Source of the DNA: a virus
Reading direction: 5' to 3' (one strand)
IMG/VR virus record: IMGVR_UViG_3300042691_015921
Length of the DNA stretch: 64,000 nucleotides
Shown: positions 27,585-30,557 of the stretch, piece by piece
How positions within the stretch are numbered: the first letter of the stretch is position 1
Layout of the letters: each line of letters opens with the position of its first letter
Notes under the pieces: model-generated
Told to the model about the DNA's origin: nothing
The model's database searches: none
What the model saw: the letters and a program-made list of their open reading frames with translations, nothing else
Translations under genes and position numbers: made by a program

Positions 27585-27943
27585 TGTATTTCTTTCTTGC
27601 CTTTTTCTGTAAGTTCAAAGTAAAACTTTCCATCTTCCCCGACTTTATAATCCATTAAACCATTCTTAACCATTTCTTCTATTGAGTCAGATATTTCTTG
27701 TTCTACTTCTTCTTTTGTCTTAAAATAAATATTGTTTAACTCATAATCATCAATTATATATTCATACTTTCCTTTATTTTTTTTAGTTAAGTCTTTGACT
27801 ATAGCTTTCGCTAGCCCTTTCTTATTGAAAATACCAACAATAAATGGAAGTGCATTATCAAGTTCAGCCGGATCATGCTCTACTTCTGGACTTAATGTCT
27901 CATAGACTACATATAATTTCATAATCCCTCCTTGTTTACCCAA
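27581..27943 (-). CDS. hypothetical protein
   Basis: ORF in operon. Confidence 0.6.
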   Translation of the reverse strand: MGKQGGIMKLYVVYETLSPEVEHDPAELDNALPFIVGIFNKKGLAKAIVKDLTKKNKGKYEYIIDDYELNNIYFKTKEEVEQEISDSIEEMVKNGLMDYKVGEDGKFYFELTEKGKKEIQ

Positions 27944-28530
27944 AGTTCTTCTTCAAACCATTCTGAAAATACAGATTGATTTAATACCACCCCCGGCTTT
28001 CCGCCCATATAATGTATTGGTTGTATCATATTATTCTTGATAGCATAATCGAAGAAATCTTTCACTGTTACCGGGGTCATTATTCCCCATCTCAGCTTAT
28101 CTTTTATAGATTCGATCTTGGAAATGTGCTTATCTAAGTCATAATCTTTTGGAATCTTTAGATCCAGATTTATCTTTTCTGATGGATAGATGAATAAGAT
28201 AGCGGCTTTTTCCCTAATGTATGCTTTCAGATCGCCAACCTTAAGGGTCAATTTACCATACGTAGGAACCCATTTAATTTCTATTGGCATATCATTGATT
28301 GGGCAGGAATTATATTTAAGATCGACTATATAATCTGCACCAGATGTTTTGCCTTTTTCAACAAATTCACCCGTGTTGTCAACACCATTATTTCTTGGAT
28401 TTTTGACGCTGATTCTTTTACTATTACAATTTTCAATCCACTTAAAAAAGAAATAGTTTTCTAACATAGTAGAAAACTTTATTTGCTGTTTGAAAGTGTC
28501 TATACTCCTATTATCAAAACGGTTAGACAT
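27919..28530 (-). CDS. hypothetical protein, possible PD-(D/E)XK nuclease fold
   Basis: GADY...IEIK spacing resembles PD-(D/E)XK. Confidence 0.45.
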   Translation of the reverse strand: MSNRFDNRSIDTFKQQIKFSTMLENYFFFKWIENCNSKRISVKNPRNNGVDNTGEFVEKGKTSGADYIVDLKYNSCPINDMPIEIKWVPTYGKLTLKVGDLKAYIREKAAILFIYPSEKINLDLKIPKDYDLDKHISKIESIKDKLRWGIMTPVTVKDFFDYAIKNNMIQPIHYMGGKPGVVLNQSVFSEWFEEELWVNKEGL

Positions 28531-28557: not shown

Positions 28558-28826
28558 TTCGGGAACTAGGATTTGAACCTAGACAGAATGATCCACATAC
28601 TACTATAGTTTTCACTACCCTTTATGGTTTGTAGTCTAGACTTTACCTTCACCATGGATTAACTTTAGGTGTCTCCCGTCAAGTCGTTACACCTTCTAAT
28701 TTCTTAGCTTGGCTCGGGATTGGCATTTTACAGCGTTCCCCGAATTTGAGAGATTATACTATTAAAGTTTCCCTTAATGCACTCCAGTTCTTAAAGTCAT
28801 TCGTGCTACCGTTACACCACTCCCGA
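28558..28826 (-). tRNA. trnQ: tRNA-Gln(UUG), split by a group I intron (exons 28794-28826 and 28558-28595)
   Basis: spliced: TCGGGAG/TTCCCGA acceptor, AATGA-CTT|TGGA-TCATT anticodon arm, CTAGG-TTCAAAT-CCTAG T arm; no encoded CCA. Confidence 0.9.
28596..28793 (-). ncRNA. group I intron (IC3-like, 198 nt, no ORF) inserted after U34
   Basis: P1 ACTT/GAGT with U.G at the splice site; P CAAATTCGGGGAA, Q AATCCCGAGC, R GTAACGACTT, S AAGGTAAAGTC (P7 GACTT/AAGTC); terminal G. Confidence 0.9.
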
Positions 28827-28827
28827 A

Positions 28828-28902
28828 TACGAGAGGGGGGAGTCGAACCCCCAACATTCAGATCCTAAATCTGACGCCTCTGCCAAATTGGGCTACCCTC
28901 GC
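28828..28902 (-). tRNA. trnL: tRNA-Leu(UAG) with short variable loop
   Basis: TCAGA-TTTAGGA-TCTGA anticodon arm, GGTTCGACTCC, A73. Confidence 0.85.
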
Positions 28903-28913
28903 ATGATATATAG

Positions 28914-29016
28914 TAGTTAAACAAGTTCTTGTGGGTTCTGTGATTGTGGTAAAGCCACAATTCAGGCTTGCTCACACCTAGCCACAAGATACAGCAAGTC
29001 TCTACTCATTTAACTA
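28914..29016 (-). ncRNA. unclassified structured RNA between tRNA-Thr and tRNA-Leu
   Basis: 13-bp closing stem, TCTTGTGG/CCACAAGA, ATTGTGG/CCACAAT hairpin, potential CTTGCT/AGCAAG pseudoknot. Confidence 0.55.
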
Positions 29017-29019
29017 TAA

Positions 29020-29092: not shown

Positions 29093-29101
29093 AAATTCTA
29101 A

Positions 29102-29203
29102 GGATGGATGAGTGGAATCGAACCACTTCAAGGGCATTTGTTTGCCTACTTTGCTGTCGCAATTCGGAACTTCCCTCACGCTACCATTCACGCTACATCC
29201 ATC
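29102..29203 (-). ncRNA. tRNA-like RNA with acceptor, D and T arms but an expanded non-decoding anticodon domain
   Basis: GATGGATG/CATCCATC, TAGCGTGAATGGTAGCG, AGTGG-TTCGATT-CCACT; about 40-nt insert with TTGC-GACA-GCAA. Confidence 0.65.
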
Positions 29204-29273
29204 ATGCAAGGCTCGCCATCTCTAACGAGCCAAGATCGCTCTATCCACATGGGTAGATACGTCAGCCTCCGAA

Positions 29274-30485: not shown

Positions 30486-30557
30486 CTGTGGGAGGTGGTT
30501 CTGCCCCACCATCTTACACTTTAACAGAGTGCCGCATTACTGTTATGCTATCCCACA
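30486..30557 (-). tRNA. trnN: tRNA-Asn(GUU) with non-canonical T loop (GGCAGAA)
   Basis: TGTGGGA/TCCCACA-G, GCACT-CTGTTAA-AGTGT, GGTGG/CCACC. Confidence 0.8.

Follow-up and report, generated by a model that had tools for sequence, protein, structure and literature searches.

A split tRNA-Gln gene in a phage tRNA cluster

The DNA analysed here (the window) is a 64,000-nucleotide stretch of a 130,685-base virus record. On its minus strand, positions 28826–28558 read as a complete pre-tRNA composed of a first exon, a group I intron and a second exon. Exon 1 (28794–28826, 33 nt) supplies the 5′ strand of the acceptor stem, the D arm, the 5′ strand of the anticodon stem and the bases C32, U33 and U34; its final four bases, ACUU (28797–28794), form the exon strand of P1. 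The intron (28596–28793, 198 nt) starts with UAAGAAC and ends with GUAUG, its last base being the terminal G (omega G) at 28596, and it is of the IC3, or tRNA-Leu(UAA), type; no ORF was found within it. Exon 2 (28558–28595, 38 nt) contributes U35, G36, G37 and A38, the 3′ strand of the anticodon stem, the variable loop, the T arm and the 3′ strand of the acceptor stem, and closes the molecule with a U1–A72 pair and a discriminator A, CCA not being encoded. The anticodon stem strands that flank the insert are AAUGA in exon 1 and UCAUU in exon 2.

Eight insertion points are possible in the seven-nucleotide anticodon loop, and a single one of them combines a U at position −1 with a terminal G of the intron. 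This site yields the loop CUU/UGGA with the anticodon UUG and places the intron between U34 and U35. At the DNA level the insertion could be shifted by one T, an ambiguity that the U(−1)/terminal-G rule resolves. An earlier note on this DNA, made from the letters alone, had proposed the junction AATGACTT-TGGATCATT, which is the single site of the eight and equals the uninterrupted tRNA-Gln sequence in other viral contigs. The splice-site U·G pair and the terminal G to which it had pointed are kept throughout an alignment of 33 homologous introns, with U34·G in 32 of the 32 rows that have letters there and an invariant column at the terminal G. The insertion position is likewise, as it had claimed, that of the tRNA-Leu(UAA) intron, designated 'Leu.3Ug' and written CUU/a...g/AAAA in Williams 2020.

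ARAGORN calls the spliced 71-mer tRNA-Gln(ttg), in agreement with the host proposed from the letters, and makes the same call for all 10 spliced products from the 10 Gln loci described below, between which the acceptor, D and anticodon stems show compensatory changes. The glutamine identity elements U1–A72, U35 and G36 are found in ten of the ten loci. The discriminator is A here, versus the G of E. coli tRNA-Gln. The glutamine identity predicted for the product is based on the anticodon, the U1–A72 pair, the ARAGORN call and synteny.

The expectation that tRNA finders would probably miss this gene was borne out. With default settings ARAGORN called no tRNA at the locus, the Rfam tRNA model gave just 13–14.5 bits on the gene halves, and ARAGORN -i returned a 'tRNA-Stop(tta)' with the intron misplaced, i(37,198). 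The search with RF00028 that the earlier note had suggested as a check was run as a permissive Rfam search of 501 bases and gave a match at 28615–28803 (minus strand) of 55.4 bits against a gathering cut-off of 50 (E 1.9e-13). When the whole record was searched with the same model, this intron was the sole match (E 1.2e-14), and no second group I intron was found in the 130,685 bases. A gathering-threshold Rfam search of the whole 64-kb window with default filters did not report it; that the intron lies above cut-off in 501 bases and is missed in 64 kb is an effect of the filters, and one that matters for annotation pipelines. The model match, the lack of an ORF and the presence of the core helices uphold the description of a compact group I intron with IC3-like architecture, the placement in this subgroup being a putative one by homology, under a class name taken from the literature.

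The split gene belongs to a minus-strand cluster of tRNAs for Gly, Asn, Ile, Met, Thr, Leu and Gln. The 3′ end of its neighbour, tRNA-Leu(UAG) (28827–28903, minus strand), abuts the 5′ end of tRNA-Gln at 28826–28827 with a spacer of 0, so that one RNase P cut would create both the Leu 3′ end and the Gln 5′ end. Elsewhere in the cluster, Rfam alone (49.3 bits) reports a tRNA at 30486–30557 on the minus strand that ARAGORN missed; read by eye it is a tRNA-Asn(GUU) with an atypical T loop, GGCAGAA. Two gaps on the minus strand contain no called gene: 28904–29019 (about 115 nt) and 29093–29272 (about 180 nt), the latter with a weak tRNA-Sec-like Rfam match (27 bits, E 0.011) and a YrlA-like one (25 bits).

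The record has a GC content of 37.2% and encodes rIIA, NrdA/B and dCMP deaminase, genes that mark a T4-like phage; the source is a T4-like aquatic phage. No other tRNA-Gln was found by ARAGORN -i in the 130.7 kb, whose glutamine codons comprise 658 CAA versus 402 CAG. The called U34 tRNAs (Leu UAA and UAG, Thr UGU, Ile UAU, Gly UCC, Arg UCU, Lys UUU and Glu UUC) read A-ending codons, and a Gln UUG tRNA thus completes the set.

Fold and covariation of the intron

The P1–P10 model was drawn from the Rfam alignment and by eye and then counted on a MAFFT alignment (A1) of 33 non-redundant homologous introns from viral contigs. All of the following elements are on the minus strand. The internal guide (28781–28787) holds the P10 strand CUG (28787–28785), which pairs with U35, G36 and G37 of exon 2, and the P1 strand GAGU (28784–28781), which pairs with A31, C32, U33 and U34 and sets U34·G at the splice site. 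It is followed by the P2 hairpin (28761–28778), of 7 bp with a GAAA loop. The catalytic core (28639–28753), delimited by the Rfam alignment and covariation, comprises P3 (28753–28748 with 28677–28672), P4/P5 (28743–28714), P6/P6a (28713–28691, with a GAAA loop), P7 (28685–28681 with 28643–28639, forming a pseudoknot with P3) and P8 (28671–28650). The P9.0/P9 three-way junction (28599–28635) consists of an outer 5-bp helix around a 2-bp hairpin and a 4-bp hairpin, the latter capped by a GAAA loop. The sequence carries GAAA tetraloops on P2 and P9 and, in P8, a receptor-like motif, CCUAA...AUGG.

Counted on A1, 96.2% of the cells of the P1–P10 model are standard pairs, versus 79.2% in shuffles and 27–47% in slid-partner controls. 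Pairs that change on both sides number 33 of 56, and the covariation score of 0.473, versus 0.154, was matched by none of 500 shuffles. Compensatory pairs are found in P3 (5 of 6), P5 (2 of 2), P6a (3 of 4) and P8 (3 of 4), in all four pairs of the inner 4-bp P9 hairpin, and in P2, where 7 of 7 pairs changed on both sides. P7, P6 and most of P4 show no variation, as expected for a catalytic centre, and the guide GAG is invariant in the 33 introns. P10 has both-sided changes in three of its three columns; this covariation is independent support for the predicted 3′ splice site and shows an intron tuned to its Gln host.

An unconstrained minimum free energy fold of the window's intron recovers P2, P3, P4, P5, P6a, P8 and P9, while the folding energy of the intron alone is unremarkable (z −1.21) and not informative as evidence. 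The window's P1 includes just four exon base pairs, and its P10 one Watson–Crick pair and two wobbles, so that splicing may need support from the anticodon stem or from a protein helper.

Relatives, P10 guides and a neighbouring nuclease gene

The best database match of the intron lies in the tRNA-Leu(UAA) gene of a 735-kb uncultured phage record, LR756501, which a 205-nt intron, 76.6% identical to the window's, interrupts at the same site. Remoter matches fall between two halves of capsid genes, in the pelagiphage HTVC120P and a related deep-sea phage. The major capsid protein of these two (L002, Pelagibacter phage HTVC120P, 19433–20607 of the record, and L003) appears as two 'capsid protein' CDSs with a homologue of the intron core between them, probably an unannotated group I intron. 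No match was obtained when 10 kb around the locus were compared by megablast with 50,697 phage records.

To collect relatives, IMG/VR was scanned twice for patterns made of conserved core strings, which gave about 150 loci, and host anticodons were called by an ARAGORN -i pass together with the U/G rule. At site 3 the hosts are UAA (60 loci), UCU (17), UUG (6, two of them being this genome), UUU (2–4), UGU (1) and UCA (1–2, an uncertain call); CAU is the host at site 5 in two loci, and 48 lack a split tRNA. A further IMG/VR scan with the Gln 3′ junction brought the Gln set to nine viral contigs plus the window. The same 3′ junction pattern was sought in bacterial genome contigs, where none of the at least 120 matches listed has an intron core upstream; by their sequence, we take these matches to be chance ones.

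Several of these loci deserve mention in their own right. One 251-kb contig (IMGVR_UViG_3300027963_000035) has split Leu, Arg and Gln tRNAs (L033, L078 and L176), and a 230-kb contig (IMGVR_UViG_3300032332_001787) has a split UAA tRNA together with a split Gln tRNA (L022 and L067). Besides the normal tRNA-Leu(UAA) of 83–89 nt, the commonest host is a UAA tRNA of 73–76 nt, with 22 non-redundant loci (L008, L013, L022, L026, L029, L030, L042, L043 and L065 among them), which has a discriminator A and a Leu-like D arm and no long variable arm; a tRNA-Leu of class I would be an unusual find in bacteria or in their phages. At L138 (13969–14074), ARAGORN -i reports a tRNA-Gly(tcc) in which 32 nt are inserted following the anticodon, possibly a mini-intron and possibly an artefact.

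Every intron pairs its guide GAG with C32-U33-U34, and the three bases 5′ of GAG can pair with the start of the 3′ exon. This P10 triplet matches the 3′ exon in most host classes: UUU or AUU versus AAA in Leu, UAC versus GUA in Thr, UAG versus UUA in Lys, and CUG, CCG or UCG versus UGG in Gln, where all five non-redundant introns tabulated pair at three of three positions. Some Arg copies have UAG versus CUA, while six of ten Arg introns pair at one position of three.

Five viral contigs (L309, L311, L318, L330 and L332) carry a tRNA-Gln(UUG) gene without an intron. The gene of these contigs is identical to the window's predicted product at 68 of 71 positions and to that of the sister locus L138 at 71 of 71, and it stands in the same order, Thr(UGU)-Gln-Asn(GUU). 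L151 has an identical anticodon arm, also uninterrupted, in a Met-Thr-Gln-Ile-Gly cluster. In a tree of the introns built after removal of the host-specific guide, the window's intron groups with five others (L067, L112, L138, L164 and L166) in a clade of six Gln introns with support of 100/99. The surrounding tree is formed mostly by Leu(UAA) introns, and the other four Gln introns (L046 type) lie elsewhere. Three changes are needed on this tree for Gln and 19 for all host labels; a single Gln clade is not rejected by the AU test (p 0.076). By these sequence relationships the window's intron is placed in the tRNA-Leu(UAA) lineage, with which it also shares core strings common to the bacterial Leu.3Ug seed of Williams 2020.

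In six sister loci (L067, L112, L138, L164, L166 and L176) tRNA-Gln is followed immediately 3′ by a free-standing HNH gene of ~236 aa on the other strand, at distances from a 15-nt overlap to 6 nt, and some twelve Leu(UAA) intron loci have an HNH homologue 6–17 nt away. Uninterrupted alleles of the L309 type have neither intron nor HNH gene. A tblastn search of the whole record of this phage with the L067 HNH protein gave no hit at E ≤ 10, from which we conclude that the window's intron is an orphan copy, one that lacks a nuclease partner. The pattern of intron plus HNH gene in the sister loci resembles, by analogy, collaborative homing. For the earlier suggestion that the intron could shield its gene from a homing endonuclease, support is indirect and comes from relatives, which have an HNH gene beside the tRNA while empty sites are without either element; the genome at hand has no such HNH gene.

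An ORF of 203 aa (27919–28530, minus strand) starts 27 nt after tRNA-Gln. It gave no hit in Pfam or PHROG, and no homologue was found beside other Gln-intron loci. Its 174 homologues at ≥48% identity come from early regions of T4-like phages, in contigs of marine and freshwater origin, and the gap upstream of them leaves too little room for a split tRNA. The protein shows a motif resembling D...ExK, and a protein atlas points weakly to PD-(D/E)XK/Hjc nucleases. As a candidate for the intron's partner nuclease it was rejected, given the lack of a family hit, its absence beside other Gln introns and its conservation away from split tRNAs.

Proposed splicing, alternatives and known systems

Taken together, these observations make it very probable that a group I intron of the tRNA-Leu(UAA) lineage, 198 nt long and without an ORF, interrupts the only tRNA-Gln gene of this phage between U34 and U35, and that, as we propose, the transcript is spliced to tRNA-Gln(UUG). 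The splicing and function put forward here are read from the fold and from known group I chemistry. The tRNA cluster would be transcribed from the minus strand, and the intron would fold into P1–P9, its guide GAGU pairing with A31-C32-U33-U34 and thereby setting the U·G wobble at the 5′ splice site. An external guanosine would cleave after U34, and the terminal G would then occupy the same site, with the CUG triplet holding U35-G36-G37 in P10 until the exons are ligated into the 71-nt tRNA-Gln(UUG). Host enzymes would trim the product and add CCA, and the mature tRNA would read CAA, the phage's preferred Gln codon. As to its history, a selfish intron may have entered tRNA-Gln from a U34 tRNA sharing C32-U33-U34, its P10 triplet becoming adapted afterwards. 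In relatives the intron appears to travel with the convergent free-standing HNH gene; since that gene is missing here, the intron would persist only because of clean splicing.

Three other readings of the locus were weighed. That the gene encodes an ochre-suppressor tRNA, with anticodon UUA and the intron 3′ of the anticodon, is suggested by the ARAGORN -i call and by the 5′ junction, whose letters CUUUAAG allow UUA to be read if the intron is placed further 3′. Such a placement would put an A instead of a U before the intron, a misfit to the 32 homologous introns, in which the U·G pair and the terminal G are invariant. The uninterrupted alleles read CUUUGGA, and TAA is a genome stop, ending 62 of 165 long ORFs in a genome well covered by ORFs under the standard code. 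We rejected the suppressor reading as having hardly any chance of being correct. Improbable too, though less extremely so, is decay, with an intron that has lost the ability to splice left as a relic in a tRNA-Gln pseudogene. The short P1 and P10 and the loss of the endonuclease partner from this genome would fit such decay, but all core helices are intact, the columns invariant in the 33-intron alignment are kept and the exons form a clean cloverleaf. Moreover, the gene is the sole tRNA-Gln of this phage, and the U34 tRNAs called in it are readers of A-ending codons; the same arrangement persists in six sister loci, where intron and exons alike show compensatory changes.

The weakness of P1 and P10 also bears on a reading that shares the ribozyme with the one preferred here. 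The intron could be a true ribozyme that needs a protein helper in vivo, or a timing gate limiting tRNA-Gln(UUG) to certain infection conditions, and some group I introns do depend on protein cofactors (PMC3984707). No sign of a dedicated cofactor was seen at the locus, however, the downstream 203-aa ORF being a conserved T4-like early gene that occurs elsewhere without a split tRNA. This makes a helper or timing gate unlikely, if the least unlikely of the three. We also count against it that the tRNA introns of Anabaena and Azoarcus, which are homologous, need no protein in order to self-splice.

For the family as a whole, we lean towards a history in which a phage-borne IC3 lineage repeatedly moved among tRNAs with C32-U33-U34 (Leu UAA, Arg UCU, Gln UUG, Lys UUU, Thr UGU and possibly an opal suppressor, UCA), retuning only the 3-nt P10 guide at each move and often accompanied by the convergent free-standing HNH gene; the balance tips only slightly in its favour. 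Were it true, phage tRNA repertoires would be systematically under-called, and the lineage would be a case of ribozyme retargeting with minimal change. The family forms a natural experimental series on how small a change lets a group I ribozyme switch target: it offers one core set in six anticodon contexts, occupied as well as empty sites, and loci with and without HNH. In T4-like phages it would bring tRNA genes within the range of homing and collaborative homing. Together with roughly a hundred related viral contigs, this locus shows that group I introns in phage tRNA genes are common. Phage tRNA inventories made with standard tools are then incomplete, the sole tRNA-Gln being here either missed or miscalled as a stop suppressor, and such gaps affect studies of codon usage, host prediction and recoding.

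At the time of the review by Hausner et al. (2014), all phage introns then known were in protein-coding genes, despite the many tRNA genes of phages (PMC3984707). The literature searched, mainly that outside subscription journals, yielded no report of a phage tRNA gene with a group I intron. The Williams 2020 preprint (bioRxiv 10.1101/2020.01.27.920355) raised the settings of bacterial tRNA introns from 4 to 21. The claim that tRNA-Gln is not a classical host needs qualifying: it is right in that the gene lies outside the four classical settings, but that preprint lists 21 bacterial ones. Its 26-intron seed alignment gives Leu, Arg, Thr and Lys names, Thr.3Ug and Lys.3Ug included, and none for Gln.

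The known class is that of the IC3 tRNA introns, and what is new here is the tRNA-Gln host in a phage genome. The intron in the tRNA-Ile(CAU) of Azoarcus sp. BH72 (IC3, 'Ile2.5Ug'), for which structures have been solved, is compact and without peripheral domains, with GAAA loops on P2 and P9 and a receptor-like motif in P8, like the window's intron. It differs in lying after the anticodon (site 5), in its guide sequences and in its bacterial host, whereas the window's intron lies inside the anticodon. The ORF-less psbA intron of cyanophage S-PM2 with its free-standing endonuclease F-CphI (PMC6083498, PMC3984707) is paralleled by the sister loci, which also pair an ORF-less intron with an adjacent free-standing endonuclease; the host here is a tRNA and the nuclease an HNH protein on the opposite strand, so that the comparison fits the family and not the window's nuclease-less copy. 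The introns of T4-type phages (td, nrdB and nrdD) and T4 SegB (PMC2988022, PMC13096335) resemble this locus in their T4-like phage setting, as selfish elements of conserved genes and in the endonuclease activity near tRNA genes, but the T4 introns are in protein genes and have their own endonuclease ORFs, and SegB is not intron-associated.

Related too are the bacterial Thr.3Ug and Lys.3Ug introns among the seeds of Williams 2020, which have non-classical U34 hosts and the same site 3, the guide of the Thr.3Ug seed, UAC-GAGUGC, being that of a phage Thr intron (L082); they differ in being bacterial, and the seeds have no Gln entry. The tRNA-Leu(UAA) intron (1990; Zaug et al. 1993; Williams 2020) has the same site, a length of ~200 nt, no ORF, the GAG guide, the P4, P6 and P7 core strings, the terminal G and a very short P1. 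In the present case the host is tRNA-Gln(UUG) instead, P10 is formed by CUG versus UGG and not by UUU versus AAA, and the intron resides in a phage rather than in a bacterial or plastid genome.
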